Below, piece by piece: positions 3,044-44,779 of a stretch of 64,000 nt of DNA. Positions within the stretch are counted from its first letter, which is position 1. Every line of letters starts with the position of its first letter. The position numbers and the translations under genes were made by a program. Origin of the DNA: an uncultured Methanomassiliicoccales archaeon. Its GTDB lineage: Archaea > Thermoplasmatota > Thermoplasmata > Methanomassiliicoccales > Methanomethylophilaceae. The stretch spans positions 1,439 through 65,438 of the forward strand of contig CAZCMJ010000001.1 in the NCBI GenBank assembly GCA_964499845.1. The letters run 5' to 3'. Below the pieces are notes generated by a model, which saw nothing but the letters and a program-made list of their open reading frames with translations, made no database searches and was not told where the DNA came from.

Positions 3044-4144
3044 TCAGAGTAGCTTGCGTGACTCTATGTACCTCTCGATCAGACTGTCCACGACCCTGGG
3101 GTCGTCGATGTCCTCACCGGATTCCCTGATCATCCTCGCCATGTCCGCTGCGGACCCAAGTTCGTAGTCGTGGTAGTCCTTGAAGTAGTATCCGTTCCTC
3201 ACGGCCCACTCGAATGGGAACAGGGATGCGCGGTCGAGGACGTATCTGTCGAAATGGGCCTCCATCTCCAAGGTGTTGATGACCTCCAGGAACTCGCCTA
3301 TGCTCCCCCTGTCGGGTTCCACATGGGGCAGTCCGAGGTCCGGATACTCCGCGGCGTAACTGTTCATGAACCCGGCCATGTTCTCCACTCCTGTGGGGGA
3401 CAGGTGGACGTAGCGTTTGGGCTCTATGGCGACGGATGTGGGGCTCACCAGCAGCGGTCTTCCGTTGGCCTTCTTGTTCTTGGCGCTCTTGGGGGCACGG
3501 TCCCTCACCAGGCGCACCTCCATGTCCTCCCTGTCGTACACCATGGGTCCATCGTGGAATGCGAGGACGTTGCCCATGATCGCTATCCTCACACCCTGGG
3601 GCAGGATGACCGCACCCTTGGGTCTCACACCCTGGACAGGCCACGACTCCAGGCTGGCGGTGACAGCATCCTCGTCGAAGTAGAGGTTTCCGCAGATCCT
3701 CATGGCCTCCTTGTGGTCCTTGCTCCCCGGTTCGTCGGCGGCATCCATCAGGGCGTAGAACCTGGCGATGTTCCCGCAGTCCTCGGGGGGACTCTCCCCG
3801 GACCAACCTGTGAGCAGGGCCCACGGAAGGTCGACATCGTCCCTGGGCTCCTCCCAGACTACGGTGATCCCCCACCCGTCTTTCATGTCATAGGTGTAGT
3901 GGATCTCGTCGCCGATGTGGTCCGTCAGGGGGACGAGGTCCTCGTCCTCTGCGTTCCCGTGTCCCTTGGGGCCGATCTTTCTATCCTTCACCATGAAGAC
4001 ATGGTCGTGGATGTCCGACCAGCTGAACACTGATTGTATCGTACTGTTGAGGTCGTTGAACGATGCGTTGCAGGGGATAGCGACTGTTCTGATTATGGAG
4101 GGGTAGCTTCCATCTATGGATATGCTCAATTGAAAGGAGGTCAT
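3044..4144 (-). CDS. pRiA4b ORF-3-like (MM3350-like) domain protein
   Basis: 366-aa ORF. The N-terminus (FQLSISIDGSYPSIIRTVAIPCNASFNDLNSTIQSVFSWSDIHDHVF...YTYDMKDGWGITVVWEE) fits the pRiA4_Orf3 pattern (L-x-V-x-L...P-x-IWR...L-x-x-LH...GW...HL-x-F...YxYDFGDxW). Confidence 0.6.
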   Translation of the reverse strand: MTSFQLSISIDGSYPSIIRTVAIPCNASFNDLNSTIQSVFSWSDIHDHVFMVKDRKIGPKGHGNAEDEDLVPLTDHIGDEIHYTYDMKDGWGITVVWEEPRDDVDLPWALLTGWSGESPPEDCGNIARFYALMDAADEPGSKDHKEAMRICGNLYFDEDAVTASLESWPVQGVRPKGAVILPQGVRIAIMGNVLAFHDGPMVYDREDMEVRLVRDRAPKSAKNKKANGRPLLVSPTSVAIEPKRYVHLSPTGVENMAGFMNSYAAEYPDLGLPHVEPDRGSIGEFLEVINTLEMEAHFDRYVLDRASLFPFEWAVRNGYYFKDYHDYELGSAADMARMIRESGEDIDDPRVVDSLIERYIESRKLL

Positions 4145-7604: not shown

Positions 7605-8291
7605 ATGGCAGACGCTAAGAAGCTCATCCGCCTTAACTACAAGGCATACCTGGCAGACGCAGACGAGAAACTGTACGACACCACCGATGCAGAGGCCGCC
7701 AAAGAGGCAGGAATCTTCAACGAGAAGTACACCTACGCCCCCATGTCCTACATCGTGGGATCCAAGACCCTCTTCCCCGACCTCGAGGAGGCCATCGCCA
7801 ACGCCGAGATCGGAAAGGAGACCGAGGTCGTCATCCCCTGCGAGAACGCAGCCGGACCCAGGAACCCCAAGCTCATCGAGCTGTACCCCATCAAGGACTT
7901 CTACAAGCAGGAGATCAACCCCTACCCCGGAATGCCCGTCAACCTCGGCAACAGGAACGGTATCGTCCTCTCCGTCGGAGCCGGACGTGTGAAGGTCGAC
8001 TTCAACAACCAGCTCGCCGGACACGACCTCATGTACAGGTTCACCGTCGTCGAGGAGGTCACCGATGCAAAGGAGAAGGCCAAGGCAATCGTCGAGATCG
8101 CATTCGGCTCCTCCGAGGGATTCGACTTCGAGGTCGCTGACGACAAGGTCACCGTCATCGAGTCCGAGATCTGCAAGTTCCACCAGAACTGGGCTGTCGC
8201 CAAGTACAAGATCGTCACCGACCTCCGCGAGGCCTTCGGTGTCGCCCGTGTCGACTTCCTCCAGGTCTGGGACGCAGGCAAGAAGGAGTGA
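7605..8291 (+). CDS. FKBP-type peptidyl-prolyl cis-trans isomerase (long archaeal SlyD-like form)
   Basis: 228-aa ORF. FKBP core with an insert-in-flap (GRVKVDFNNQLAGHDLMYRFTVVEV) and a C-terminal extra domain. Confidence 0.8.
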   Translation: MADAKKLIRLNYKAYLADADEKLYDTTDAEAAKEAGIFNEKYTYAPMSYIVGSKTLFPDLEEAIANAEIGKETEVVIPCENAAGPRNPKLIELYPIKDFYKQEINPYPGMPVNLGNRNGIVLSVGAGRVKVDFNNQLAGHDLMYRFTVVEEVTDAKEKAKAIVEIAFGSSEGFDFEVADDKVTVIESEICKFHQNWAVAKYKIVTDLREAFGVARVDFLQVWDAGKKE

Positions 8292-8293
8292 TC

Positions 8294-8340
8294 CCGGGGT
8301 TCTCCCCGGACATCCAAACCCTTTCGGCCCTCACGGGCCG
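8294..8340. terminator. two GC hairpins between convergent genes (FKBP and Fic)
   Basis: CCGGGG-TTCT-CCCCGG at 8294-8309 and CGGCCC-TCAC-GGGCCG at 8325-8340, followed by CTTTCTC. Confidence 0.4.
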
Positions 8341-8365
8341 GACCTTTCTCATCCCCACTTTCTGA

Positions 8366-9496
8366 TCAGAGATCTTCCCTTTCGGAGATGGTCTCCCTGA
8401 GGTCCCTGAACGGATCCAGGAACACATACCTCATCGAGCGGGTGCGACCTTCTTTCACCAGGATGCCCCCGTCCACCAGTTCCTCCAATATCCTCTTGAC
8501 CTTGGAGCTGCCCAACACAGTCCATCCGGCCGCATCATTCACTGTGAACGGTCCGGACACCTTCGCCTTGGAGACGATGGCACGGGTGTTTTCATCCATG
8601 TCCTTGAGCAGGTCCTTTTCCGAGAAGGATTCCACCGCCTCCCTGTATGCACAGAGGAGGGATTCGGTGAAATAACCGATCAGCGGGGTGTAATTGCCTG
8701 TGAGGTCCGTATAGGACATCAGGTTGTAGTATGTGACCGGATCGGAGAGCATCTTCTCCTCGAACTTGCAGAGGTTGCAGCTCCTGAGCCCCTGTTGTTC
8801 CAGGAGTGTTTGGAAGAGCACCCTCCCGGTACGTCCATTCCCATCAAGGAACGGGTGTATGCTCTCGAACTCATGGAAGAACAATGTGGCCGTCACGATG
8901 TCCTCGAACGGCGACGAGTTCACATTCTCCATCAGGGAGGTCAGTTCATCCTGTACCGATGATGTGGGGCATGCGATGAAGTATTCCGTACCATCCGATC
9001 CTCTGACACAAACATCCCTTCTGCGGATGGTACCCGGTTCGATGTCCCCTACACCGGTCATCAGACGTCTGTGAACGTAAAGCACCGTTCCTTTGTCCCA
9101 TGGGAGGTCCAGTTTGTCACGGAACAGGAATCCCAGATGGTTCAGGATCTCCTGGCTGGGGCCGTTGGGACTTTCCCTCACCATGCCTGATGTGAATTCC
9201 GTCGCAAGGGTCCTGACCTCTTCCAATGTCATCCTGTTTCCCTCGATCCTTGTCGACCAATGGGTGTTGGAGGCATATGCATCCAGAACAAGGTCGCGAT
9301 AGTCGTTCTCATTGAGGAGGTATCCGCCCAATTCTGAATCCAACATGCGGATCTCTCTGAACATCCTCTTCAGTTCCGGGGTAAGGGACACCACGGGATA
9401 GAACGGCACCTTCCTCCTGTGTACGATGGGGAATCGTATGGGTCTGTACATCGAGTAGTCGCTTTTACCTTGTTTTTGAGGTATATTAGGATACAT
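8366..9496 (-). CDS. Fic-family protein (class II, internal inhibitory motif) with C-terminal wHTH
   Basis: Fic motif HPFLDGNGRTGR at nt 8822-8857. N-terminal S-x-x-x-E-G inhibitory motif STRIEG at nt 9239-9256. The C-terminus is wHTH-like. The start may instead be Met16 (nt 9451), given the TATA position. Confidence 0.85.
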   Translation of the reverse strand: MYPNIPQKQGKSDYSMYRPIRFPIVHRRKVPFYPVVSLTPELKRMFREIRMLDSELGGYLLNENDYRDLVLDAYASNTHWSTRIEGNRMTLEEVRTLATEFTSGMVRESPNGPSQEILNHLGFLFRDKLDLPWDKGTVLYVHRRLMTGVGDIEPGTIRRRDVCVRGSDGTEYFIACPTSSVQDELTSLMENVNSSPFEDIVTATLFFHEFESIHPFLDGNGRTGRVLFQTLLEQQGLRSCNLCKFEEKMLSDPVTYYNLMSYTDLTGNYTPLIGYFTESLLCAYREAVESFSEKDLLKDMDENTRAIVSKAKVSGPFTVNDAAGWTVLGSSKVKRILEELVDGGILVKEGRTRSMRYVFLDPFRDLRETISEREDL

Positions 9497-9526
9497 TTAT
9501 GACTCTTATATTTAAAATTATTCTGA

Positions 9527-9563
9527 TTAATGTATGTTGATATCTGATATTAACACATATTAA
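9527..9563. promoter_or_regulatory. 37-bp AT-rich imperfect palindrome between the 138-aa ORF stop and the Fic promoter
   Basis: TTAATGTATGTTGATATC-T-GATATTAACACATATTAA; 15 of 18 arm positions are complementary. It overlaps the TAA stop at 9560-9562 and lies just upstream of a TTTAAATATA TATA-like box for Fic. Confidence 0.4.
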
Positions 9564-9976
9564 TCCAAAATGATGGCCTCAACAGGCCCCTTCAGCAGCA
9601 GGTCCTCGGCATACCTCCGGAACCCTTCATCCCCGGGTTCACCGTGTACGGATATGCGGATGGTCCTGAGATTCACGGACTCCTTGTCCAAGGGTGTGTT
9701 GTGCCCGGCATCGGTGAACGACTGGAGTATGTTGGAGATGCGTTCCATGGCCTTCCTCATGGGCATGGAGAACTGGGCATCGGTCACGCTGGTGTGTACT
9801 TCCAATGTGTCGCACATCAGGATTTCCCCGATCAGTGGCGTGAGGTCATCGTCGATGGAGCACCTCCCCATACCATCGGAGATGCATCCGGCACATCCCA
9901 CGCATCTGCGCACCCTGCCGGTGACGCGGAAACCCTCATCCGAGGGGAGATCGGTCAGCACGAACCTGTGTTCCAT
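9560..9976 (-). CDS. hypothetical protein resembling an N-terminally truncated flavodoxin-fold (iron-sulfur flavoprotein / NADPH-FMN reductase-like) protein
   Basis: CVGCAGCISDGMGRCSIDDDLTPLIGEILMCDTLEVHTSV parallels the C-x-G-C-x-x-C...G-x-C-x-I-x-DD...aD-x-I segment of that family. The N-terminal FMN-loop region is missing. Confidence 0.4.
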   Translation of the reverse strand: MEHRFVLTDLPSDEGFRVTGRVRRCVGCAGCISDGMGRCSIDDDLTPLIGEILMCDTLEVHTSVTDAQFSMPMRKAMERISNILQSFTDAGHNTPLDKESVNLRTIRISVHGEPGDEGFRRYAEDLLLKGPVEAIILD

Positions 9977-10229
9977 GCTGACGGATGCCCATGTCGGTAT
10001 AAAGGGCTGCGGTCACTCGAAGAATGACAGGATGGTGTTGACCTCGGGGCTCTGTCTGTTGCGGTAGTCCCTGTGGCGGTCCGTTCTGCTGTCTGTCCTC
10101 ATATCCCTCAGATGCTGTCTGGGCAGGGGGATGAGCACGGTCTGCTGGTATGTCATCGCTTTCACTCCTGTCTCCGGCATGAACCTTCGACAGTCACTAT
10201 ATGGGCGAAGTAGTATAATTACTGCTGGC

Positions 10230-10283
10230 TGTAATGCCTGTAATGATTGTAATAAAGGTAGTACGGGTAATGTTTGTCATCGA
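10230..10283. repeat. six tandem 9-bp units, consensus KGTMRT-NNN
   Basis: TGTAATGCC TGTAATGAT TGTAATAAA GGTAGTACG GGTAATGTT TGTCATCGA, read directly from the sequence. The array lies between the stop of the 283-aa regulator gene and a TATA-like AATTATACTA on the minus strand. Confidence 0.55.
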
Positions 10284-10321: not shown

Positions 10322-11173
10322 TCACTCCTCCCTGAGGTCCTCCTCGATGGTGTCCGTGTGGAAGGTGTCGATGATGTTCAGACCCTCGGCGGTCAGGACG
10401 TACCTGTTCCTTAGGTCCTCCCTGGTGACCCAATCGTTGGCCACCCACTTGTTGATGAAGTCCCTCTGGTAATACACGGCCTCGGTCTGGCGCTGGGTGG
10501 ACTTCCTGTCGGGGTTGTCGGTGACGGTGTCCCTGAACCAGATGCCCTTGGCGTGGAGGGCGGCGATCATGTGACCGCTGGTGGTGGACTCCCCACGTTC
10601 GTTCTTGGCGTTGAGGATCCTGAGTCCCCTGACCAGGTGCCTCTCGGGGATGTCGATGGAGTAGCTGGGGAGGGTGCGGGGGTCGTAGGTGGACTTGGTG
10701 AGTCCAACGGGCTTCCCGTCGATGAAGTAGGTATCCTCGATCCTCTCCCTGTTCACGGTGTACTCCCTGCTGCCGACGGAGAAGGGTATGGTGCCGGGCA
10801 TCATCATGGATGCGATGGCGGATGCGGCCGCGTACTCGGAGGTTCCGGAGGAGATGTTAACGAAGATCTCGCAGGCCTCCTTGTTCTCGTCCATCTCCCT
10901 GCGGATGATCTCCAGGACGGTCCTGAGCATGGCGGTGAAGTCGCTGACCTTCTCGTTGTGCTCCACGACCTCGACCTTCCTGGGCGTGCCGCCGATGATC
11001 TCCAGGACCCTCTCGTAGAAGGAGTTGTAGATGTTGTCCGGCTGTTCCGGGTCCTTGACGTAGTGGATGATGTGGGCCTTGTTGATTTCGTAGTATTCGA
11101 TGGGGTCCGTGACCTTGGAGGTCTCGAACGTGACGCATGCGATCATGATCCTCTTCTTGCGACCGGATGACAT
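10322..11173 (-). CDS. CARF-like Rossmann domain plus C-terminal wHTH regulator (resembles HFX_2341/DUF6293-type archaeal regulators)
   Basis: 283-aa ORF. The N-terminal strand IMIACVTFETSK and VNISSGTSEY resemble the two CARF/Csa3 ligand-pocket motifs. The C-terminal ~90 aa is wHTH-like (HLVRGLRILNAK...YVLTAEGLNII). Confidence 0.6.
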   Translation of the reverse strand: MSSGRKKRIMIACVTFETSKVTDPIEYYEINKAHIIHYVKDPEQPDNIYNSFYERVLEIIGGTPRKVEVVEHNEKVSDFTAMLRTVLEIIRREMDENKEACEIFVNISSGTSEYAAASAIASMMMPGTIPFSVGSREYTVNRERIEDTYFIDGKPVGLTKSTYDPRTLPSYSIDIPERHLVRGLRILNAKNERGESTTSGHMIAALHAKGIWFRDTVTDNPDRKSTQRQTEAVYYQRDFINKWVANDWVTREDLRNRYVLTAEGLNIIDTFHTDTIEEDLREE

Positions 11174-11326
11174 GGGTGTTCACCTTCTGTTGGGGTTGCG
11201 AACGGGGTTTGGATATATAACATATATTTCAGATGATACATGTATTACATTGTAGGGTTATCCGATGGACTCAGAAGGTATCATCCTGGAAGGGGATACG
11301 GTGATGCCGGACAACAAGGTGCCCGG

Positions 11327-13204
11327 TCAGTGCCTTCCGATCCTTTCCCTGATGTGGTCGGACAGTGCCCTGTCGGTGCAGTACACGAAGCATCCCTTCA
11401 TGCCACGGGTCATCAGCACCCTGTAGGTGTTCTTGATGATGCGGTCCGCAATCAGGATCTGTTCCTCCTTGGAATGTTTCCTGAGTCCGTTGAGGGACTT
11501 GTCTGTCTTGGCACGTTTGGAGGCATCGGTGATGATGGTGTTGGTGGAAGGGTCGTATCCCATATCTGGACCTATTATGACACCGACATAGTCGAACTCC
11601 AATCCCTGACAGGTGTGGATGCAACCCGCTTCGTTCACGGAATCTGGGTCGATGGCCCAAGTGGTGGAGTTTCCAAGGTTCCAACTCATCCCGAATCCGT
11701 GTTCAGGTATGGTGATGTCATGGACCTTGCTGTCGTTCTTCCCATCGGGGATCCAGTTCCAGCAGTAACCGGCAACGATCCTGGACCTGTTGTCGACCTT
11801 GTTCCTCCTCTCGATCTCCGCCCTCATCTCGTTGGGGTCGTCGAAGACCCGTATGTCGTAATCGAATGATTCGTCGTATCCGAATGCAGCGGTCTCCCTG
11901 ACCTGGAGGAGGTTGTCCACCCATTCCAGATATCCATCGGAACCGGAGCATCTGAACTGGGAGTCCAGCTCCAGCTCCCTTATGTCGGCACCCTGTTCCA
12001 TTGCGAATCCGCGGATGACGTCCACCGTTCCGATGTCGTCGAGGGTGACCCTCTGGTCCTCGTCGATGAAGAACACGGACAGACGTGACGAACGGATGAT
12101 CTCCTTCACCTGGTTCTCGCCCATGTTCCTGTACAGTCCGCTCCTCTCGTTCAGTCTGTGGGCCTCGTCCACCAGGAGGACGTCGAACGCGTTCTCCGGA
12201 GCGGTTGTGAACTTCCCGGACCCCATGAAGAGGGCGTCGATGCGGCTCTTCCTCATGTTACCCTTGAGCCTGCAGTTGTAGATGTTGCGGGGTGCGGCGT
12301 TCTTGGTGACGTATGCGGCGGAGGAGCCGTCACCTATGAGGGTCGCCAGGATGTTCACCGCCAGGACGGTCTTGCCTGTACCGGGGCCTCCCTTGACGAT
12401 TATCGTCCTCTTGCGGCCTCCCCTGAGGGTGTTCCTGGCGGAGTCCAGGATCTCCTCGAAGACGATCTTCTGGGTGTCGATCATGACGAACTCCCTGTTC
12501 CCATCCATCATGGATGCGAGGACATCCTGCAGGGACCTGGAGGGCCTGAGCCTTCCACGGTCGATCATGAAGATGGTCTCCAGGTTGTCCCCTCTGCGGA
12601 TGATGTCCTCCAGGAACATCCTCAGTCTGTCCCCGTCCCTCTTGCGGAAGACGGGGGCGTCGGAGGTGTACCTGTCGTAGATGGGGTCGAGCAGCGGGTC
12701 CGGTGTACGTTCGAGGTAGTTGTGGAGGCATGCGCAGGGTTGGAGGACCACGTCATGGTCCTGGATGTCGGCGTTGAAGTCGCTGATGGCCATGGCATAG
12801 GACCATGCCTGGTATGAGGGGTGCGTGGTCTCATGGTCCCCTCCGTTGATGAAGGTCCTGACAACACCGTCCTTCCCGGGGACCATCTCCGCCCTCTCCC
12901 ACTGTTTGAGCTCCACGATGACGGCGGAGTTCCTGTCCTGTCCGTCGTAGCCTGAGATGATGAGGTCGACGCGCTTGGATGTGTATGGGATGTTGTACTC
13001 CACGGCTATGCCCACGTCGTCGGGGAGGGATGAGCTGGAGAGGATGGTGCCCATGTATCCGAGGGAGTTGGTCCATGCACGGACCTCCGATTGGGGTGTG
13101 CGGCGTCCGAAGCGCTCCTCTATGGCAGAACCTATCCTGTCCTCGAGCTCACCGTGGAGGATGTCCCCGATGAACTCGCCTTTGGTCCTGCTGTAGATGA
13201 TCAT
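11327..13204 (-). CDS. DUF2075-type nuclease-helicase (PD-(D/E)xK-like N-domain plus SF1 / Schlafen-helicase-like ATPase)
   Basis: 625 aa. E69...D80(LIISG)...E98-L-K100 at nt 12905-12999. Walker A GGPGTGKT at nt 12368-12391. Walker B LLVDEAHR. C-terminal HTCQGLEFDYVGVIIG and VLMTRGMKG motifs. Confidence 0.8.
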   Translation of the reverse strand: MIIYSRTKGEFIGDILHGELEDRIGSAIEERFGRRTPQSEVRAWTNSLGYMGTILSSSSLPDDVGIAVEYNIPYTSKRVDLIISGYDGQDRNSAVIVELKQWERAEMVPGKDGVVRTFINGGDHETTHPSYQAWSYAMAISDFNADIQDHDVVLQPCACLHNYLERTPDPLLDPIYDRYTSDAPVFRKRDGDRLRMFLEDIIRRGDNLETIFMIDRGRLRPSRSLQDVLASMMDGNREFVMIDTQKIVFEEILDSARNTLRGGRKRTIIVKGGPGTGKTVLAVNILATLIGDGSSAAYVTKNAAPRNIYNCRLKGNMRKSRIDALFMGSGKFTTAPENAFDVLLVDEAHRLNERSGLYRNMGENQVKEIIRSSRLSVFFIDEDQRVTLDDIGTVDVIRGFAMEQGADIRELELDSQFRCSGSDGYLEWVDNLLQVRETAAFGYDESFDYDIRVFDDPNEMRAEIERRNKVDNRSRIVAGYCWNWIPDGKNDSKVHDITIPEHGFGMSWNLGNSTTWAIDPDSVNEAGCIHTCQGLEFDYVGVIIGPDMGYDPSTNTIITDASKRAKTDKSLNGLRKHSKEEQILIADRIIKNTYRVLMTRGMKGCFVYCTDRALSDHIRERIGRH

Positions 13205-13470
13205 GAGGGGATTATAGAGTCATAGGAATGTAAAACCATATCGGAGGTTGTATCGTCATCGAGAGGGAAACGATCCGGACTCACAGATATTGGTCGATGA
13301 GGAGCGTCGCAGGTGTGATGCAGAGGTCGTCAGATTGACGAAGAGGATGGCGTCCGAGAGACAACCGCGTCGCAAGAGGGAGTTGTACGAGCGTATAGGG
13401 GAATTGATCGATATGCGTCCGTGATGTGGGGTCCGAGATGAGGTGATGTATTGATAATTCACCGTATTAT

Positions 13471-13619
13471 TTGAACTGTAACTTCAAATTTTACAGATAA
13501 AAAATTAGTATTTATAAATCTTATTGAGTAATTATGATAATATTTATTGAATGTTTAACGTTATTATGAATTGTCAAATATAATCTGAAAAAAATTGAAG
13601 TGCAACTTCAAAATTTACA
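13471..13619. repeat. two 25-bp direct repeats (22/25 identical) in a very AT-rich intergenic patch
   Basis: TTGAACTGTAACTTCAAATTTTACA at 13471-13495 and TTGAAGTGCAACTTCAAAATTTACA at 13595-13619. The second contains the perfect palindrome TTGAAGT-GCA-ACTTCAA and sits at the promoter of the ATPase gene. Confidence 0.6.
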
Positions 13620-13642
13620 TATACTCACTAATCCATCATCCA

Positions 13643-14878
13643 ATGATGATTTCGAGGACCATCATGGATTCGATCGAGGAGAGTCTAAGATTCAAACCTG
13701 TCACTCTCATCACCGGTGCCCGGCAGGTCGGTAAGACCACAATCTGCAAGATCATAGCCGAAAGACATGGATTCGGTTATGTATCTCTTGCTATCGGTTC
13801 GGACAGGGCTATGGCCCTGAGCGATCCGGAACTGTTTCTCCATCTCCATCCTGCTCCTGTGATCATCGACGAGGTCCAATATGCTCCGAAACTCTTCGAT
13901 GTGATAGAGGGGATAGTGGATGAGGAGAAATACAAGAAGGGGTCCAATGCAGGGATGTACATACTCACAGGCAGTCAGGTATACAGTCTGATGCGGGGAG
14001 TCACCCAATCGATGGCCGGCAGGGTCAGTATCATAGAGATGTCCCCCCTCAGCATAAGCGAGATTCTGGGTCGTGAGGAGAGGCCGTTCAAGGTCGACTT
14101 CGAGAATAACATCCATCGTGCCATGGGACACGTTCTGTCTGCGGGCGATGTGTACGGTATGATAGTCCGTGGAGGTTATCCCGAACTCTACAGTCAACCC
14201 GATATGAGGTCGACCAAATTCTATTCCGATTATGTGGACACATATATCGACCGTGATGTATCGGAGTTGATCAATCTCAAGGACAAGCTGAAGTTCAGGC
14301 AGTTCATGGAATATGTTGCATCGATTACCGGTCAGGAATTGGTCTATGACCATATATCCAGTGCTATAGGGGTAAGCATCCATACCGTTCAATCATGGTT
14401 GAGCATCCTCGTTTCAAGCGGTATCGTGCATCTGTTGCAACCGTATTATGAGAGGTCCAATGTGAAGCGGATAGTCAAACGTCCTAAGCTGTACTTCTGT
14501 GACACCGGATTGGCCTGTTATCTCGCCAAGGTCTTCGATCCGGACACGCTTCGTGTGGGGTATCTCGGAGGCCCTATGGTGGAGACATTCATAGTCAACG
14601 AGATCATGAAATCCTATTCAAACAACACTGAAGAGGCCGGATTCTACTACTACCGTGATTCGGAGAAATTCGAGGTGGATCTGTTGATCCTACGTGATGC
14701 AAAGTTGACACTCATCGAGTGTAAGGCAGGACGGGGATACGATCGGACAGATGTGAAGGCATTCTCGAGGCTGGAGAAATCGGATTATGACGTCGGGCCG
14801 TCCTGTCTCATCTGCCTGTCGGACCGTGCGTATCCGTTGACCCCAAATGTCTACGCGTTACCTATATCCTCGATATGA
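13643..14878 (+). CDS. AAA-family ATPase with C-terminal DUF4143-like domain
   Basis: Track ORF 13595-14878, which starts at TTG; ATG 13643 or 13664 is more likely. Walker A GARQVGKTT, Walker B VIIDEVQ, and a long C-terminal region typical of AAA_14/DUF4143 proteins. Confidence 0.8.
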   Translation: MMISRTIMDSIEESLRFKPVTLITGARQVGKTTICKIIAERHGFGYVSLAIGSDRAMALSDPELFLHLHPAPVIIDEVQYAPKLFDVIEGIVDEEKYKKGSNAGMYILTGSQVYSLMRGVTQSMAGRVSIIEMSPLSISEILGREERPFKVDFENNIHRAMGHVLSAGDVYGMIVRGGYPELYSQPDMRSTKFYSDYVDTYIDRDVSELINLKDKLKFRQFMEYVASITGQELVYDHISSAIGVSIHTVQSWLSILVSSGIVHLLQPYYERSNVKRIVKRPKLYFCDTGLACYLAKVFDPDTLRVGYLGGPMVETFIVNEIMKSYSNNTEEAGFYYYRDSEKFEVDLLILRDAKLTLIECKAGRGYDRTDVKAFSRLEKSDYDVGPSCLICLSDRAYPLTPNVYALPISSI

Positions 14879-14916
14879 TTTCCGAACCAAAAGTTCAGTT
14901 TTTGGACATTGATTTC

Positions 14917-14939
14917 AAATGTTCAAAATATGAACATTT
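14917..14939. promoter_or_regulatory. perfect 9-bp inverted repeat upstream of the second ATPase gene
   Basis: AAATGTTCA-AAATA-TGAACATTT, just upstream of the TATA GTTTATATACC (14946-14956) and the ATG at 14977. Confidence 0.45.
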
Positions 14940-14976
14940 CTATCCGTTTATATACCTATAACAACAACATCGTCGT

Positions 14977-16341
14977 ATGAGGGAATTCGTCGGAAGGGAG
15001 AGGGAGCTCTCCCGGCTGGAAGATATATGGAACGGGAGCGGAACAAGGGCCGTAGCGGTCTATGGGCGTCGCCGTATAGGCAAATCCGAACTGCTGAGGC
15101 GTTTTTGCTCTGATAAGCGTTCGGTCTACATCGAATGTGTCATGGGTTCCCTCGCCGACAACATCCACATCATCCACGGTGCCGTCTCCTCCCTGGACGG
15201 GACCGACAGGGATGAACCCGTCCACCTCAACGATGCATTGGCGGAGATCATCGGATGCTGCATGGGGGAGCGTACGGTCGTCGTATTCGACGAGGTCCCG
15301 TACCTCCTGGATGCCGCAGAGCATTTGGGATCCTCGTTACAGCACTTCGTGGATTCCATCGTCCGTGATACGGGATCGATGGTGATCGTCTGCGGATCGT
15401 CCATGTCGGTGATGAGGAGGGAGACCACGGACTATGACCGTCCGTTGTACGGTAGGTTCCCACAGAGGATGGAGGTGGGTCCCCTGTCCTTCAGGGAATG
15501 CCGTTCGTTCCATCCGAGGATGGACCCCGTCGATAATCTGAAGCTGTACCTCACACTGGACGGTGTCCCGAAGTTCCATCTCGACAGGGACACGTCCACC
15601 TATCGGGAGTACATCAAGAGGCATCTCCTGTCACCGGATGCGGACATGGCGGGTGAGGGGAAGGCGATGGTCATGGCCGAGTTCGCCCCCGCGGGGAGGT
15701 ACATGGCCGTCGTCAATGCCGTCTCCGATGGTGCGACGTCGCTGAAGACCATATCCGAACGTACGGGCATACAGCGCACCACATGCTCCAGATGTATAGA
15801 TGAGCTCGTCTCGGTCGGTATACTGGGAACGGTGGAACCTATGATGGGTGCCCCGAAGAGGTCGGTGTAAAGGATTGCCGACCCTATGATGGCATTCTGC
15901 CAGGGGGTTGTAAGGGAATCCAAGGCCTATAGGTTGAGGGGCCCGTCGGACATCTACGATGTGGTCTCGTCGAGGATCGACACCTTCCTCGGGATCAGAT
16001 TCCAGGACCATTGCAGACGGTATGTCGTCGACAACTGGGATTGCATGGCCGCGGGGTCGTGGTGGGGCCCTGATGATGAGGGCACAATCCGTGAGGTGGA
16101 TGTGGTGGCAACGGTGAAGGACGGTTCCTCGTCATACGCTCTTTTCGGAGAATGCAAGTTCCGCAGACTCAGTATGCCGCTGTCCGTCCACAGGGAGTTG
16201 GTTGATGATGTGTCCCTGATAAGGACGGATCTGACGAGACACTACATCCTGTTCTCGATATCGGGCTTCACCGATGAACTGGCTGAGGTGGCCGCGGACG
16301 ATGGTGTGGTGCTCATAGGGCCGGATGAACTTTTGGGCTGA
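14977..16341 (+). pseudogene. archaeal ATPase (Arch_ATPase-like) plus DUF234 gene split by an in-frame TAA
   Basis: Track ORFs 14977-15870 and 15886-16341 share a frame. FVGRERELSRL...VYGRRRIGKSEL is the ATPase N-terminus. TAA at 15868-15870 interrupts ...APKRSV*RIADPMMAFCQGVV, where family members usually read ...Y-x-I-x-D-P-x-x-x-F. Confidence 0.6.
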
Positions 16342-16441
16342 GGGTCGGGGTCTGTATCAGATCAAATACTCAACTCCATGATAAGGGCACAATCACAACA
16401 GATGAATCAATCGCAGGGATGATGATAGAGAAAAACAAAAA

Positions 16442-16519
16442 TGGCGAACAGGAGGGGATTCGAACCCCCGGCTTGCAGCTTAGGAGGCTGCCGCCATATC
16501 CAGGCTAGGCCACCTGTCC
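16442..16519 (-). tRNA. tRNA-Arg (anticodon CCU), CCA encoded
   Basis: Hand fold: acceptor GGACAGG/CCTGTTC (one G-U pair), anticodon arm GCAGC-CTCCTAA-GCTGC, T arm GGGGG-TTCGAAT-CCCCT, 3' GCCA. Confidence 0.8.
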
Positions 16520-17004
16520 GTCGAAATCCCTCTATAATCGCCTGGTATAAATAGATTGCGTAAGGTTTAGCCTCGATGAAATCATGATCTAAGGGGATTA
16601 GCTTCCAGCCTTCTTCAGATTGTTCCCGGTGCCGATCGGCATCGGGTCACTCGTCTCCGATCGTTGTTTTGGCAGATTCTTTATATATCATATCGCCATG
16701 TATGGGTAGGTGGATTTGGATATATATCAATAAATTGATTATAATCCAAATCCAACCGCGAAACAACAGAGAACGACGGGCGATCCGAATCCACCGAGCC
16801 GAAGAGGCGAAAAAAGGGGTTCTCTCCCAACAACTGAAACATACGGGGGAGGCCATCCGGGATGTGCCGCGGATGACGGAGAATGCTGATGGGAACAAGG
16901 AACATAAAATCGACGGAAGAAGGGCCAGGAAAGGCAAGAGGGCGGAGTACGCCCGCAAGCGCATCGGCGAAGCGGATCTGCTGTAACGTTACGTCCTTCT
17001 CCTG

Positions 17005-17461
17005 ATGGCCATCATGGAGCATCTCGGGATTCCCGAGTACCGCCATAGGAGGAGCAACCACCTGTTCAGCTACCGCGGGAAGATCGTCCTGCTGGTCCTG
17101 AGACAACGCCTCAGGCTCTCGTATCAGCAGTTCGTCAAGGACCTCCCCTCGTACAAGGGCGTCATCGACGCCCTTGGACTCATACACGTCCCCCATCACA
17201 CCACTCTGATAAGGTTCGCACAGACCGTGGACGAGCAGGACCTCGAAGCGGCGGTCTGCGCCTTCCAGCATTTCTGCAGGAAGGATTGCGTCCCAGCTGT
17301 GGACTGTACGGGGTTCAGCAACTTCCTGCGCTCGGCGCACTTCACCAAGCGCTGCGTGGACTTCGGCATCAGGACGGAGCCCGGATCCTTCACGAAGGGG
17401 TCGTATGCAGTGGACATCGACACCCATCCGATCGTATCCGCCCGCTATTCCGCCATCATGA
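17005..17461 (+). pseudogene. N-terminal fragment of a DDE transposase (IS5/IS4-superfamily-like), with the IS1634-like element abutting its 3' end
   Basis: The track ORF 17005-17559 is transposase-like only up to ...AVDCTGFSNF...KGSYAVDIDTHPIVSARYSAIM. Past 17462 the ORF reads into the inverted repeat of the neighbouring IS. No continuation is found after 19390. Confidence 0.5.
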
Positions 17462-19390
17462 TTGAAATTCCCGAACTTTCTCGTTACATCTGCCGAGGCC
17501 CGATGGGGCCACTCAGCCGCGATCGATCCCCTTGGGCGGCCCCACGTCGAACATCTTGAAGATCAGACGGTTGTCCCTCGTCGGCTCCGTCATCCTGCTC
17601 CACCCTTTGCCTTGGATCAGCTCGAGGTTGCTCAGGGATGCGAGGAGCATCCCCGGCGTCCTCTTCGAGAGGCCTCTGGGCTTCATATCGCTGCGGACCT
17701 TCCTGTCCGCCTCGTATTCGGACGATCTGCGGATCATCTCCATCTGCATGATCAGGGAGACCATCCGGATCAGGGTCCTTCCGCGTATCGCATCGCGGTC
17801 CCCGGACCGCGGCGTCCTGCCGTCGCCTTCGTTCTTGTCCTCGAGGAACGCGTCCTCGATGATGTCCCTGCAGGCATAGCAGTCCAGAACCTGTCTCCAA
17901 TCGCGGTTCCTCTCATGCGGCGTGATCATGATGAACACCCCCTTGCGATTGGCGTTGAAGGTGTGCGAATTCTGCTTGACGGTCACCTCCATGCCGTCCT
18001 CCCCCATCGTCCATTCCAGCATCCCGGCATAGGCTCCGGCCGACTTGGCGAACAGCTTGGCCGGATCGCGGGGTCTGCGCCCCTTGAGATCGCTGACGAT
18101 CCCGTTCAGGGCCACATCCATCCCTTCGGTTTCGCAGCCGGCGGCCCTCACGTCGCGGTATGCGAACACATCCAGATATCCGTCCGCGGACCCGTAGTCC
18201 CGATCGTCCTCGGACATCATGTCGTAACCGTCCGGATCCTCCCATACCGTGCTGCGTCTGGTCCTGTTCTCGTCCCTGTTCACGCGGATCCCGACCGTGG
18301 TCCGCAGGACGGTGTACGAGTGGCCGTCGTGAACGAACGTGTGCTCCACATCCCCGACGAACCTCAGAAGCGACGTCACTATGGATTTGACCACCGGGTT
18401 GTCGCCCATGACCATCGGCATGACGAAGTCCATGCCGTTGTCCAGGAGGTACATGGCGCCTCTGCATGATACGAATCCCCTGTCCATGACGAGGACCGCC
18501 CCGGCTCCGCCGAGGCGGACCACGTCGTCGACCATGCGTTGGAGAGTGGCGACATCGACGGTGGAACCTGGATACAGATAGAACATCAACGGATGTCCGA
18601 CCTTGTCCGTGACCAGTCCGAGATTCTGCTGCGGGAGCCTCATATGGTCCTTGTTGCGCCCCCATTCGGCATTGGAGTTCCTCGAGCTGTACGTGCTCTC
18701 CGACGTCAGATCGAAGATGTACTGGTCGTTCGCAGTCCCGATCCTCCTGCGGAAGAACTCGTCCAGACCCGAGAAGTCGGTCCCTATCCTCTTCGTCAGC
18801 TCCGACATCCTCTGCGATGAGAAGTCCGTATCCTCCGGCAGTCCGAGGAGTTGGGGCACGCAGCTCCTCTCCATCGTATCCTCGACGTGCATCAATGCCG
18901 CAGGACGGATCGTATAGGCCATGGCGACCGCCATGGCCATCGTCCCGTCCTTCGCTCCGAACGATTTGACGAGATCCTCGAGGATGCCGAGCCTCTCCTG
19001 TAGAGCCATCAGAAGATAGGCGTCTCCGAACCTCTTGCAGGATACCACCATGGGGACTTCTGCCTTCTCCGACTCCGTCTTCAACGGCCCGAACTCCCCC
19101 GTCTCCTCGTCGTAGAAGTACCCTTTCTTCGGCCTGAGCCTGCCGTCGACCATGACTCCCATGTATTCTGTATCTGCCACGGGGCCACGTTTTTCTTCGG
19201 AATAGTGCGAGGTGGACCGGTATACGTACTCCTTTCCGCCCTTTTTCACTATATACGGCTCAAGCATATACCAAGAATCTCGTTATAGTATTTAATGGGT
19301 TCGATTTATAAAAGAGCCCTGATTTTTTCGGCTTAGTATTTAAAAAAGATAACGAGAACTTGGCATACCAAGATTATTTGGGATTTTCAA
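17462..19390 (-). mobile_element. IS1634-like (IS4-superfamily) insertion sequence
   Basis: Imperfect terminal inverted repeats: TTGAAATTCCCGAACTTTCTCGTTA at 17462-17486 versus the reverse complement of 19366-19390, TTGAAAATCCCAAATAATCTTGGTA (17/25). They enclose one long transposase ORF. No target-site duplication was seen. Confidence 0.55.
17513..19267 (-). CDS. IS1634-family-like DDE transposase
   Basis: 584-aa ORF. DDE-type blocks (IFDLTSEST, LVMDRGFVS, YACRDIIEDAFLEDKNE) with the long D-to-E spacing typical of IS1634/IS4 elements. Confidence 0.8.
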   Translation of the reverse strand: MLEPYIVKKGGKEYVYRSTSHYSEEKRGPVADTEYMGVMVDGRLRPKKGYFYDEETGEFGPLKTESEKAEVPMVVSCKRFGDAYLLMALQERLGILEDLVKSFGAKDGTMAMAVAMAYTIRPAALMHVEDTMERSCVPQLLGLPEDTDFSSQRMSELTKRIGTDFSGLDEFFRRRIGTANDQYIFDLTSESTYSSRNSNAEWGRNKDHMRLPQQNLGLVTDKVGHPLMFYLYPGSTVDVATLQRMVDDVVRLGGAGAVLVMDRGFVSCRGAMYLLDNGMDFVMPMVMGDNPVVKSIVTSLLRFVGDVEHTFVHDGHSYTVLRTTVGIRVNRDENRTRRSTVWEDPDGYDMMSEDDRDYGSADGYLDVFAYRDVRAAGCETEGMDVALNGIVSDLKGRRPRDPAKLFAKSAGAYAGMLEWTMGEDGMEVTVKQNSHTFNANRKGVFIMITPHERNRDWRQVLDCYACRDIIEDAFLEDKNEGDGRTPRSGDRDAIRGRTLIRMVSLIMQMEMIRRSSEYEADRKVRSDMKPRGLSKRTPGMLLASLSNLELIQGKGWSRMTEPTRDNRLIFKMFDVGPPKGIDRG

Positions 19391-19481: not shown

Positions 19482-20364
19482 AGTAATGTTGGTCTCGGCA
19501 TCGATGTATTTGGTCACGTTATCGGGAAGTACGAAGTCAGGCCCCATGCGTACACCGGCAGGAAGAGGCCGATGTCCAACGACGTCATCGACAGGGTATA
19601 CGGACTCGCCAGGGAGACGGACAGATGGGATGTTCTCAGGGGATGCATGACGGCGATCCTCTGCTGCAGCCGCGGTCTGAGACCGCAGGAGGCACGCCAG
19701 CTTTACGCCGACGACATCGTCCTCATGGGCGACCGTTCCGTCGTGCATGTGGAGCACGTCAAGGATGAGGGCACCTGGGGAGAGCCCAGGAATGTTCCTG
19801 ATTATGGACGGTGTCGAGGACATCTTCAGGAAGTACCTCGGGATGAGGGTGGAGGTCCTCAGGGAACACGGGATCGAGAGCAGAGAGATGTTCCCTCCGC
19901 TGAAGGGGAATGTGGAGTTCTACTGCCAGCAGTCCTTCGGCAGGCTCAAGAAGGTCGTGGAGGACATCCGCGGGACGAGGTTCGAGCTCCGTTCCGGTCG
20001 CAGGGCATTCGGTCAGAGGCTCCTCGACAAGGGCAACCTGATCGAAGACGTCTCCGTGGCCATGGGCCACGCATCCACGAAGACCATCGAGGGGTACTAC
20101 GCACGCGGTCGCGAGGACATTGTCATGAACAGGATCTGTCGCGCGAGCGCGGTCAGGAGGTGTCCTGAGGCAGTTGGAAACGGGCCCATATGCATGGGGA
20201 AGGACTCGTCAAGAAACCTTCCTTATGCGTGGATTCAATCACCAAAAGTTGGCACAAATCGGAAAACAATAGCTTCAGAATCCAACTGTCTGGACAGAAG
20301 AGTGGGCCTACCCGGATTTGAACCGGGGTCAATGGCTCCCAAAGCCACAAGTATACCAAGCTAG
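19482..20364 (+). pseudogene. tyrosine recombinase/integrase remnant (N-terminally truncated, frameshift near 19790-19800)
   Basis: Frame 0 reads ...GLRPQEARQLYADDIVLMGDRSVVHVEHVKDEGTWGEPRNVP. Frame +1 (track ORF 19747-20364) continues IMDGVEDIFRKYL...LRSGRRAFGQRLL...AMGHASTKTIEGYY (R, H-x-x-R and Y catalytic signature). The ORF tail runs antisense into tRNA-Pro. Confidence 0.6.
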
Positions 20365-43032: not shown

Positions 43033-44358
43033 ATGAAGTTCGGAATGAAGGTGTTCATCGCAACAGTGTTCATCGCAACGGTCGTGCTGTCTTTGACCGT
43101 GTTCGCCGGGGATCCCGTCTCGGCCCGTCCCCTGGGGGAGGACCCTGCGGACTACGCGAATGTGTCATGGATCCTGATATGCTCGGCACTGGTGTTCATC
43201 ATGAGCCCCGGGGTCGCCCTGTTCTACGGCGGGATGTTGAGGAAGCAGAGTATGACATCTATGATCGCCCAGACGCTCTTCGCCATGGCCATCATGTCCG
43301 TCTCGTGGGTCGTCGTCGGTTACTCGTTGGCGTTCTCCGACGGGAACATGTTCGTCGGCGGTCTGGATCATGTCCTTCTCAGGGGAGTGGATGCTGATGT
43401 GATCGGCGGATATCCCGTTCCGGACCTGGAGTTCATGCTCTTCCAGATGATGTTCGCGATGATCACCGCGGTCATCGTCCTTGGAGCCTGTGCGGAGCGT
43501 ATGAAGTACACGGCCATCGTCTGGTTCCTGGCGGTGTGGTCGGTCCTGGTGTATGCACCCATGGCCCACATGGTCTGGGGCGGAGGGTTCCTGGAGAGCG
43601 GATTGCCGTTCGGCATGACCACGGTGGATTTTGCCGGGGGCACCGTCGTCCACATATGTGCCGGGGCCACGGGTCTGGCCTTGGTCACGTATCTGGGGAA
43701 GAGGAGCGACAAGGTCTCCAAGAGGTCCCACAGCATCCCGCTGACCTTCATGGGCTGTTTCCTGCTTTGGTTCGGATGGATCGGGTTCAACGGCGGTTCG
43801 GGTCTGGCGGCAGACGGGGTGGCGGTGAACGCCATAGTGGTCTCCCAGATCTCCGCAGTGTGCGCATTGGTGTCCTGGGCCGTCGTTCAGTACATGCATG
43901 TGGGCCGTGTGGGCGGTCTCGGTCTCATAGCAGGGGCCATCGCCGGATTGGTCGCCATAACTCCTGCCGCAGGATCCGTCGGTCCGACGGACGCCATCAT
44001 GATCGGTCTGGTCGGAGGTGTGGTCTGTTACTTCGGGGTAATCCTCATGAGGGGCAGGTCCGGGTTGGACGATGCCCTCGATGTGATGGGTGTCCACGGT
44101 ATCGGAGGGATATGGGGTGCGGTCGCCACGGGTCTGTTCGCCGATGCCGCGAGCGGAGGTCTGTTGTATTCGGGTGATTGGCATTTGATCGCGGGACAGT
44201 TGGTGGCCGTCGCGTTCACCCTTGTGTTCTGTTTCACCGTATCTTACATCATAGTACGGGTGCTGGGGAGGTTGATCGAAGGGGTCCGCATCTCGGAGGA
44301 TGAGGAGGCCATGGGTCAGGACATCGTCGAGCACGGTGAACCGGCCTATGTCATGTGA
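43033..44358 (+). CDS. amt: ammonium transporter
   Basis: 441 aa with multiple TM helices. Amt signatures DFAGGTVVH and GVHGIGGIWG. Confidence 0.9.
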   Translation: MKFGMKVFIATVFIATVVLSLTVFAGDPVSARPLGEDPADYANVSWILICSALVFIMSPGVALFYGGMLRKQSMTSMIAQTLFAMAIMSVSWVVVGYSLAFSDGNMFVGGLDHVLLRGVDADVIGGYPVPDLEFMLFQMMFAMITAVIVLGACAERMKYTAIVWFLAVWSVLVYAPMAHMVWGGGFLESGLPFGMTTVDFAGGTVVHICAGATGLALVTYLGKRSDKVSKRSHSIPLTFMGCFLLWFGWIGFNGGSGLAADGVAVNAIVVSQISAVCALVSWAVVQYMHVGRVGGLGLIAGAIAGLVAITPAAGSVGPTDAIMIGLVGGVVCYFGVILMRGRSGLDDALDVMGVHGIGGIWGAVATGLFADAASGGLLYSGDWHLIAGQLVAVAFTLVFCFTVSYIIVRVLGRLIEGVRISEDEEAMGQDIVEHGEPAYVM

Positions 44359-44367
44359 GGTGATGTC

Positions 44368-44688
44368 GTGAAGATGGTTGTGGCGGTGATAAGGCCGGAG
44401 AAGCTGCAGAATGTGAAGGATGCCCTCGCGGGGATTGGTGTCCGTGGGATGACGATCACCCACGTCACCGGCCGCGGGGAGCAGATGGGCCTGAGGTTCA
44501 CCAACAGGGTCGGTGAGTTCACCGTGGATGAGATCGAGAAGGTCAAGGTGGAGACGGTGGTGGAGGATGATCAGGTCGATACGGTGATCGATGTCATAAG
44601 GGAGGTCGCAGGCACAGGGCATCCCGGGGACGGGAGGATATTCGTGATCCTGGTGGAGAGGTCGGTGAGGATCAGGGCGGACGAATGA
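44368..44688 (+). CDS. glnK: P-II nitrogen regulatory protein
   Basis: 106 aa. MKMVVAVIRPEKLQNVKDALAGIGVRGMTITHVTGRGEQ (P-II fold and T-loop), immediately after amt. Confidence 0.9.
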   Translation: MKMVVAVIRPEKLQNVKDALAGIGVRGMTITHVTGRGEQMGLRFTNRVGEFTVDEIEKVKVETVVEDDQVDTVIDVIREVAGTGHPGDGRIFVILVERSVRIRADE

Positions 44689-44779
44689 GGTCCGGCACGG
44701 GGCCGATACAGCGATATCGGTCCCGGAAAACACCTTCTTCATCGGAATACGGTGATGATGACGGAATGATGAAAAAGGA

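Follow-up and report, generated by a model that had tools for sequence, protein, structure and literature searches.

Do two neighbouring genes in an archaeal genome form a defence module, in which a ligand-sensing regulator is coupled to a nuclease-helicase effector, or are they neighbours only because one of them was inserted beside the other? This question is raised by a stretch of 64,000 nucleotides (nt), hereafter the window, from an uncultured Methanomassiliicoccales archaeon. The window is archaeal, with a G+C content of ~58%, and its nearest relatives are metagenome-assembled genomes of Methanomassiliicoccales/Methanomethylophilaceae. It encodes on the minus strand a nuclease-helicase of 625 amino acids (aa) (11327-13204) and, directly downstream, a 283-aa protein that combines a CARF domain with a winged helix-turn-helix (wHTH) domain (10322-11173). 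A first-pass annotation of this DNA, whose two open reading frames (ORFs) and quoted motifs were recovered exactly as described, had proposed that the second protein regulates the first. If true, the proposal would have added a CARF-controlled, CRISPR-independent system to the known defences; the evidence says otherwise. With a probability of roughly 80%, the two genes are functionally independent, and a mobile Nhi-like nuclease-helicase has landed beside a conserved CARF regulator of the HFX_2341/Crr type. The case thus illustrates how a mobile gene of defence type can come to lie next to a conserved regulator, both genes being of known kinds.

The main evidence comes from gene order in related loci, which were fetched for comparison with the window and carry the labels L001 to L095. 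A CARF-centred set comprised 75 loci from GTDB species representatives (0.98 Mb), and a helicase-centred set comprised 80 metagenome loci (0.92 Mb, G+C 26-61%). A gene of the DUF2075 helicase family was found near the CARF gene in two of the 75 loci, namely L012, which belongs to the window's own species, and L070. Conversely, an HFX_2341-type CARF gene was found near the helicase in one of the 80 loci (L095), 3.7 kb off and with four opposite-strand genes between them. L012 has the two genes side by side and in one direction, as in the window. In L009 and L010, a YhcG nuclease gene sits between them, and in L007 they diverge, with a tRNA and 4.7 kb between them. Order, orientation, and intervening genes vary case by case. 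No helicase is present in the neighbourhoods of CARF homologues at 64% and 75% identity, it is missing from this position in L001-L006, and the helicase family occurs overwhelmingly in organisms without the HFX_2341-type CARF family. The expectation that homologues of both genes would co-occur as neighbours across genomes is thus not borne out. Since the two genes are not syntenic elsewhere, the pair hypothesis fails: judged from gene order, the CARF and helicase genes are not a two-gene defence module but neighbours through island insertion.

The conserved arrangement into which the helicase was inserted can be read from the relatives. In Methanomassiliicoccales, the order tRNA-Arg, CARF-wHTH, small basic ORF, 138-aa ORF, and FKBP26 is fixed. 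Of the 51 loci in which the tRNA-Arg was detected, 48 have it 106-364 bp 5' of the CARF gene, the distances in the others being 616, 1902, and 2741 bp. The corresponding distance in the window is 5269 bp. Since the CARF gene stands directly beside the tRNA-Arg in the relatives, the helicase belongs to a ~5.2-kb insertion (11250-16441) that separates the CARF promoter from the 3' end of tRNA-Arg(CCT) (16442-16519, minus strand), which is the ancestral 5' neighbour of the CARF gene. Its limits were set by blastn against relatives: window segments 10352-11249 and 16437-16561 are only ~130 nt apart in L005 and L006, and 11250-16436 is recognized as an insertion because these flanks are nearly contiguous there. 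Together with the helicase, it carries an AAA_14/DUF4143 ATPase gene (13595-14878, plus strand) and an ATPase_2 ORF with a separate DUF234 ORF (14977-16341, plus strand), as assigned by Pfam. The tRNA-Arg is a likely integration hotspot, and a phage-type integrase stands beside it in L005.

The distributions of the two genes also differ. The CARF gene was recovered at 75 loci in Methanomassiliicoccales species representatives, a few of them in bins labelled bacterial, and is apparently a vertically inherited, conserved chromosomal gene. Full-length homologues of the 625-aa protein number more than 8000 in the protein database, with 47-50% full-length identity to Halomonas, Methanosphaera, Halalkalicoccus, and Hymenobacter plasmid records and to a Microcystis phage gene. 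Such plasmid and phage relatives across domains therefore point to horizontal mobility of the helicase gene. Close homologues sit elsewhere, beside genes for Cas9/Cas1, Fic, DUF4143, ATPase_2/DUF234, or a Cas4-like protein, and Fic genes recur near helicase homologues in L087, in L089, and in 5 of the 80 metagenome loci. As a separate observation, cas9 and cas1 directly adjoin a helicase homologue in L088 (1-4749), whose neighbours are Methanomethylophilaceae-like (DapB, DUF1638, and PAP2). With the cas12a of L070, this places class 2 CRISPR genes near such islands, and a type III system was seen in none of the examined loci.

The two genes are also distinguished by their promoters. As the first-pass annotation had recognized, the 283-aa gene has a separate AT-rich promoter, and the 153-nt spacer between the genes (11174-11326) carries an AT-rich, TATA-like element 5' of it. 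Abutting and overlapping this element on the minus strand are four operator-like 9-nt units, TGTAATACA TGTATCATC TGAAATATA TGTTATATA (11214-11249). Three further TGTAAT units with 9-nt spacing lie in the opposite orientation (10230-10256, plus strand), just 5' of the TATA-like element that precedes the small ORF. The 64 kb contain three matches to the pattern TGTWAYNNNTGTW, where 0.12 would be expected, and all lie at these two sites of the CARF locus. A sequence-level test for a shared operon or regulator site revealed a conserved promoter proper to the CARF gene and no arrays at the helicase promoter: in the helicase upstream region (13205-13600), no array site was found, even with one mismatch allowed (TGTWAY arrays).

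The arrays are conserved well beyond the window. Among 84 loci (1.13 Mb), 127 of 150 matches fall at most 200 bp upstream or at most 250 bp downstream of the CARF gene, although such counts overstate independence, the loci being kin by descent. Orientation is fixed in this set, the upstream array always following the direction of the gene and the downstream array, present in 50 of the 84 loci, always being inverted. The hexamers are spaced by multiples of 9 nt in 96% of the downstream and 76% of the upstream cases. Moreover, 6-mer enrichment found TGTAAT in 27 of 46 non-redundant orthologous upstream regions versus 3.6 expected. Because the surrounding promoter sequence aligns poorly, this preservation indicates that selection acts on the repeats. 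The arrays are most economically read as a candidate operator of the CARF-wHTH protein, which would regulate its own gene and the unit formed by the small ORF and the 138-aa ORF.

This unit and its anchor make up the rest of the conserved block. The small ORF (10013-10180, minus strand; likely start at 10156) would encode a basic, arginine-rich protein of 47-55 aa and was delimited by protein alignment and neighbour tables. It lies 3' of the CARF gene and, in L001-L005, L007, and L009, was predicted as a gene of 47-49 aa. Five orthologues share 16 invariant residues, with the pattern M.YQQTVLIPLPRQ...NTILSFFD/E, and no Pfam family was matched. The 138-aa ORF (9560-9976, minus strand), which has a CxxCxxC...C motif and likewise no Pfam family, was followed with tblastn, by which its homologues adjoin the CARF gene in ~38 of the 75 loci. 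The synteny anchor is an FKBP26-type peptidyl-prolyl isomerase gene (7605-8291, plus strand), identified by Pfam FKBP26_IF in the neighbour tables and adjoining the CARF gene in ~50 of the 75 loci. The same block is seen beside the CARF homologues at 64% and 75% identity, where CARF-wHTH is accompanied by the 47-49-aa ORF, an ORF of ~140 aa (in L005), and FKBP26 on the opposite strand. A known RNA 3' of the CARF gene was considered and ruled out, the conserved stretch having no Rfam match.

Several observations weigh against the independence of the two genes, or against parts of the explanation given here for their adjacency. CARF and DUF2075 genes co-occur in several contexts: in the window, L012, L009/L010, and, at a distance, L007, and also in L070 and L095. 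The strongest case is L070 (7123-14654; Methanomassiliicoccaceae UBA328), in which a cas12a ORF on the opposite strand is followed by a tight co-directional series formed by a 42%-identical CARF-wHTH paralogue, a GIY-YIG ORF, a 431-aa DUF2075 protein, and a 628-aa PD-(D/E)xK-DUF2075 protein; it is the sole tight CARF-DUF2075 arrangement found outside the window's species. Because of these cases, a loose functional or island-level association of the CARF and helicase genes keeps a small probability. Regarding the insertion, neither an att-site (attachment-site) duplication nor an integrase was found at its borders; the sole att-type match to the tRNA-Arg 3' end (13199-13213 versus 16446-16460, 15 nt with 2 mismatches) overlaps the helicase start and is put down to chance. 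To these are added the shared descent of the loci that display the arrays and two points concerning the 625-aa protein: its N-terminal domain has no significant fold match in the PDB (Foldseek, best E 0.03), and a defence role of its subfamily is inferred by analogy, the PADLOC matches (PDC-S41, AbiO, and Nhi) being partial.

The regulator itself can be placed with some precision. The CARF and wHTH assignment of the first-pass annotation was confirmed by Pfam, with HFX_2341_N (PF19810) at aa 8-137 (E 7e-15, 55.9 bits against a cut-off of 30) and the winged helix DUF6293_C (PF22665) at aa 168-270 (E 8e-7, 29.8 bits against a cut-off of 27). The PADLOC CARF3 profile PDLC01878 matches the full length (E 1.4e-100), with weaker matches to Csm6 and Csx1 CARF models, the label 'CARF3' being taken from PADLOC profile names alone. 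The AlphaFold2 model of the protein has a predicted local distance difference test score (pLDDT) of 88.9 and a helix-rich C-terminal domain with a beta hairpin at 249-260. In Foldseek searches against the PDB, its best 48 matches are all CARF proteins (E down to 4e-5; probability 1.0 for most and never below 0.92), including Csm6, Csa3, Cdn1, Cam1, Card1, Can2, ring nucleases, and Cad1. Moreover, little or no variation is seen, across 36-45 homologues of 26-81% identity, in the loop that follows beta1 (VTFE17T) and in the one that follows beta4 (N106-x-S108-x-G110-xxE113). Taken from its profiles and predicted fold, the 283-aa protein is a genuine CARF-wHTH protein of the HFX_2341/Crr (DUF6293, CARF3) family. 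A PDB sequence search with this protein and the 625-aa protein returned only P-loop-level or spurious matches.

The prototype of this family, HFX_2341 (Crr) of Haloferax mediterranei, is a global repressor that is vertically inherited and also occurs in CRISPR-negative species (PMC11434293). Its ligand has not yet been found, and the H. mediterranei genome lacks a Cas10-type cyclase; both deletion and overexpression of the gene change cas gene expression, and the authors of this study, the sole experimental one on HFX_2341/Crr, call for chromatin immunoprecipitation sequencing (PMC11434293). The first-pass annotation had regarded the CARF protein as an orphan, with no cas gene, CRISPR array, or nucleotide cyclase around it. 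This holds, yet orphan status is already known for the HFX_2341/Crr family as a whole (PMC11434293). In the window, no CRISPR-like array was found in the 64 kb with Tandem Repeats Finder (TRF), and no cas gene or cyclase among the ~45 ORFs scanned with Pfam, which comprised the larger ones window-wide, most of those in 2.5-20.4 kb, and several alternative-frame ORFs, many small ORFs outside 2.5-20.4 kb being left out.

These data bear on the possibility of a Csa3-like, type III-linked regulatory function for the CARF-wHTH protein, which would then answer cyclic oligoadenylate from a Cas10 encoded elsewhere in the genome. Its domain build, its conserved CARF loop motifs, and its whole-length match to cyclic tetraadenylate (cA4)-bound Csa3 (6wxq, 2wte) would suit such a function. 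However, besides the lack of cas10, a cyclase, or a CRISPR array among what was scanned in the 64 kb, L070 is the only one of the 75 CARF loci seen beside a cas gene, the others having had no systematic cas scan, and that gene is cas12a. Cas12a makes no cyclic oligoadenylate. The one helicase locus with CRISPR neighbours adjoins cas9 and cas1, and the fixed, vertically inherited position of the CARF gene suits a housekeeping regulator better. In view also of the presence of HFX_2341 in CRISPR-negative species and in a host without a Cas10-type cyclase (PMC11434293), a Csa3-like role is unlikely.

The 625-aa protein is likewise of the kind that had been proposed for it. Its SLFN-g3_helicase (DUF2075) domain, PF09848, spans aa 265-611 (Pfam, E 7.8e-105), and the superfamily 1 (SF1) helicase/ATPase core (11372-12412, minus strand) was delimited by Pfam and motifs. 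Walker A (GGPGTGKT) is encoded at 12368-12391, Walker B is LLVDEAHR, and the motifs HTCQGLEFDYVGVIIG and VLMTRGMKG are also present. The ATPase motifs (Walker A, Walker B, and Q/R) are intact, G275, T276, G277, K278, E347, D381, and Q416 being invariant in the homologue alignment. In turn, the N-terminal 255 residues (12440-13204, minus strand) matched no Pfam family and were recognized as a restriction-endonuclease-like domain by conservation and an AlphaFold2 model. A full-library HMMER search with this domain retrieved 1772 cluster representatives at E<=1e-3. Among the 150 matches listed, nearly all align from at or near their own N-terminus, and many have lengths of ~590-800 aa, many others being shorter and probably fragments.

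The first-pass annotation had read a PD-(D/E)xK-like signature in this domain, and conservation as well as structure prediction bear it out. In 53-64 homologues of 30-50% identity, E69, R78, D80, E98, K100, W102, H128, P129, Q132, and Y136 are invariant, the codons for E69, D80, E98, and K100 falling within 12905-13000. The model is confident (pLDDT 93.5; predicted template modelling score, pTM, 0.90) and shows, after a long helix, three consecutive strands (65-71, 78-86, and 92-100) that carry E69, D80, and E98/K100. In the model, this layout is that of a canonical restriction-endonuclease core (beta-beta-beta). The weak top Foldseek matches include Card1, EcoO109I, BstEII, MspJI, Exo5, HamA, Can2, and Shedu, which are PD-(D/E)xK enzymes, and several homologues have subthreshold matches to PDDEXK_9, NERD, and Tox-REase-9. 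On alignment and model together, the nuclease-helicase reading is accepted. The subfamily is very large and spans domains of life, and the residues that do not vary within it can now be targeted by mutagenesis. Beside the gene, a stretch of ~250 nt that is not AT-rich (13205-13460) separates the helicase start from a divergent AT-rich promoter region; no convincing ORF was found in it, and the matching spacer of L009 measures just 152 bp.

Whether this enzyme serves defence or the host chromosome is a further question, since repair enzymes, Dna2 and AddAB-type proteins among them, can likewise combine a PD-(D/E)xK nuclease with an SF1 helicase in one fusion. A cellular enzyme of DNA repair or replication restart would agree with the partial nature of the PADLOC defence-profile matches and with the fact that a defence phenotype of the subfamily is suggested by analogy. 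However, the gene is patchily distributed and its position varies even among close relatives, identities of 47-50% extend across domains of life, and it occurs on plasmids and in a phage. Moreover, its recurrent neighbours are Cas9, Cas12a, Fic/SoFic, and PDC-S01/S27-type ATPases, and its architecture is that of the experimentally validated Nhi and Nhi-like proteins. A repair function is, thus, improbable.

It is also conceivable that Crr-type CARF proteins are sentinels at the tRNA-Arg hotspot that sense a nucleotide messenger other than that of type III systems, their arrays controlling the small basic protein and possibly DUF2075 island genes in trans. The co-location of CARF and DUF2075 genes in the window's lineage, L070, and L095 would in that case stem not from chance but from a functional connection that is loose yet real. 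Such a role appears very unlikely. The least likely explanation is the originally proposed module, in which a nucleotide signal perceived by the CARF-wHTH protein would lead it to activate the neighbouring nuclease-helicase: the co-directional adjacency in the window and L012, the DUF2075 genes directly after the CARF paralogue of L070, the co-occurrence within ~4 kb in L095 and L007, and the altered cas expression on overexpression or deletion of HFX_2341 (PMC11434293) speak for it, but it is largely refuted by synteny in just 2 of 75 and 1 of 80 loci, by an adjacency made by insertion beside the tRNA-Arg, by gene orders, orientations, and intervening genes that differ each time, by a CARF promoter that is conserved and its own next to a helicase promoter without arrays, and by a helicase family that resides mostly in organisms without this CARF family.

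Under the preferred explanation, that of two functionally independent genes brought together by insertion, the locus could operate as follows. A dimer of the CARF-wHTH protein would bind a small, nucleotide-type ligand in its CARF pocket, to which the two conserved loops belong, and ligand binding would shift its occupancy of the TGT(A/T)AT hexamer arrays with their 9-bp spacing. Since these arrays stand at its own promoter and at that of the small ORF and 138-aa ORF, autoregulation and a small local regulon would result, and the protein may have distant targets too, as in Haloferax. The helicase, in turn, would have come with the two archaeal ATPase genes into the hotspot on the 3' side of the tRNA-Arg, which borders the CARF gene. 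By analogy with Nhi, the 625-aa protein may translocate on or unwind viral or plasmid DNA intermediates in an ATP-driven manner, an action that would be coupled to cleavage by the N-terminal nuclease and would constitute a single-gene defence. The TGTWAT arrays and the small ORF offer a concrete candidate operator and target for the HFX_2341/Crr family in a second archaeal lineage.

The remainder of the island, with its Fic gene, its DUF4143 and ATPase_2 ATPases, and weak traces of mobile elements, is in keeping with the defence-island context that the first-pass annotation had described. The variable region is limited to ~8.3-20.4 kb and bounded by tRNA-Thr and tRNA-Pro. The Fic-domain gene (8366-9496, minus strand) is SoFic-like (Pfam Fic, E 2e-17; PADLOC SoFic, E 2e-36) and represents a second, separate insertion between the 138-aa ORF and FKBP26, since 8340-9685 is without a counterpart in L005. 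Beyond the tRNA-Arg lie a weak DDE-transposase ORF (17513-19267) and, beside tRNA-Pro, a weak integrase-C-terminal fragment (19747-20364), both from Pfam. The ORF at 16681-17427 was considered as kin of the tRNA-Arg integrase of L005 and discarded, the similarity not being meaningful (E 0.033). Within the ~5.2-kb insertion, the ATPase_2 domain with its wHTH (14977-15870) and DUF234 (15886-16341) are two ORFs, corresponding to a single protein of ~468 aa in L088 and L089, and here the gene has probably been split or turned into a pseudogene. An AT-rich element of 29 nt, TTGAACTGTAACTTCAAATTTTACAGATA, occurs on the plus strand at 13471-13499, 13595-13623, and 14902-14930, the other copies being 86% and 69% identical. 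These sites precede the DUF4143 ATPase gene or coincide with its start, and likewise precede the ATPase_2 gene; the element may be a promoter or regulatory element shared by the two island ATPase genes. A PRiA4_ORF3-like gene (3044-4144, minus strand) is a further strain-specific insertion relative to L005.

Elsewhere, the window is occupied by housekeeping genes, among them those for glutamate synthase, the CCA-adding enzyme, two proteins of the acetolactate-synthase type, GAPDH, PGK, AspRS, GatA/GatB, an ammonium transporter, GTP cyclohydrolase, and 5S rRNA. Four tRNAs and this 5S rRNA are the only Rfam matches. A ribosomal-protein operon begins in the window, with L3 at 51213-52211, the genes past L3 being outside the scan. 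The ORF at 43165-44742 (minus strand) is spurious, the plus-strand ammonium transporter being the real gene there.

Comparison with known systems places both genes among described kinds while setting them apart in detail. HFX_2341/Crr (PF19810 and PF22665) and the 283-aa protein share an N-terminal CARF domain and a C-terminal winged helix, and their genes are alike in being chromosomal and lineage-wide, without CRISPR linkage or a cognate cyclase nearby. However, the two proteins are distant, profile-level kin, and the host here belongs to Methanomassiliicoccales, not to the haloarchaea. Moreover, the candidate TGTWAT operator with its 9-bp spacing and the local block of small ORF, 138-aa ORF, and FKBP26 are features of this locus that are not reported for Crr. 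Fold and domain order are also shared with Csa3/Csa3a of Saccharolobus, which binds cA4 (Foldseek E 8e-5 to 2e-4, probability 1.0, ~270 alignment columns), and by analogy the same logic would be expected, in which a ligand in the CARF dimer controls DNA binding. In contrast, Csa3 is found inside CRISPR-cas loci and answers the cA4 of type III systems, whereas the 283-aa gene is not linked to cas genes and its product has ~12% identity and falls in another CARF clade.

The closest architectural parallels of the 625-aa protein are Nhi and Nhi-like proteins, single-gene anti-phage defences that combine an N-terminal nuclease with DUF2075 (bioRxiv 10.1101/776245; 10.1101/2022.05.11.491447). Nhi (Staphylococcus epidermidis SERP2475), Nhi-like (Millman et al. 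2022), AbiO, the PADLOC candidate PDC-S41, and the 625-aa protein all join an N-terminal PD-(D/E)xK-type domain to DUF2075 in ~600-650 aa, and the genes of all of them reside in variable or defence islands. However, only the ATPase core of the 625-aa protein (aa 237-392, E 2e-11 to 2e-14) is matched by the Nhi and AbiO profiles of PADLOC: the Nhi profile aligns with aa 238-387 over positions 180-302 of 470 (E 2.3e-11), short of a full-length match. The N-terminal domain has no detectable sequence similarity to Nhi or AbiO, and PDC-S41 matches mainly the C-terminal part. Since these profiles reach just the ATPase core or, for PDC-S41, mainly the C-terminal part, the 625-aa protein is, by profile comparison, a relative of Nhi at the level of architecture and superfamily and not a member of the Nhi or AbiO family. 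Finally, the eukaryotic group 3 Schlafen proteins (SLFN5/11/13) have a helicase domain of the same Pfam family, PF09848, but their N-terminal nuclease core has another fold and their domain context and biology are different, and the likeness is confined to the ATPase domain.

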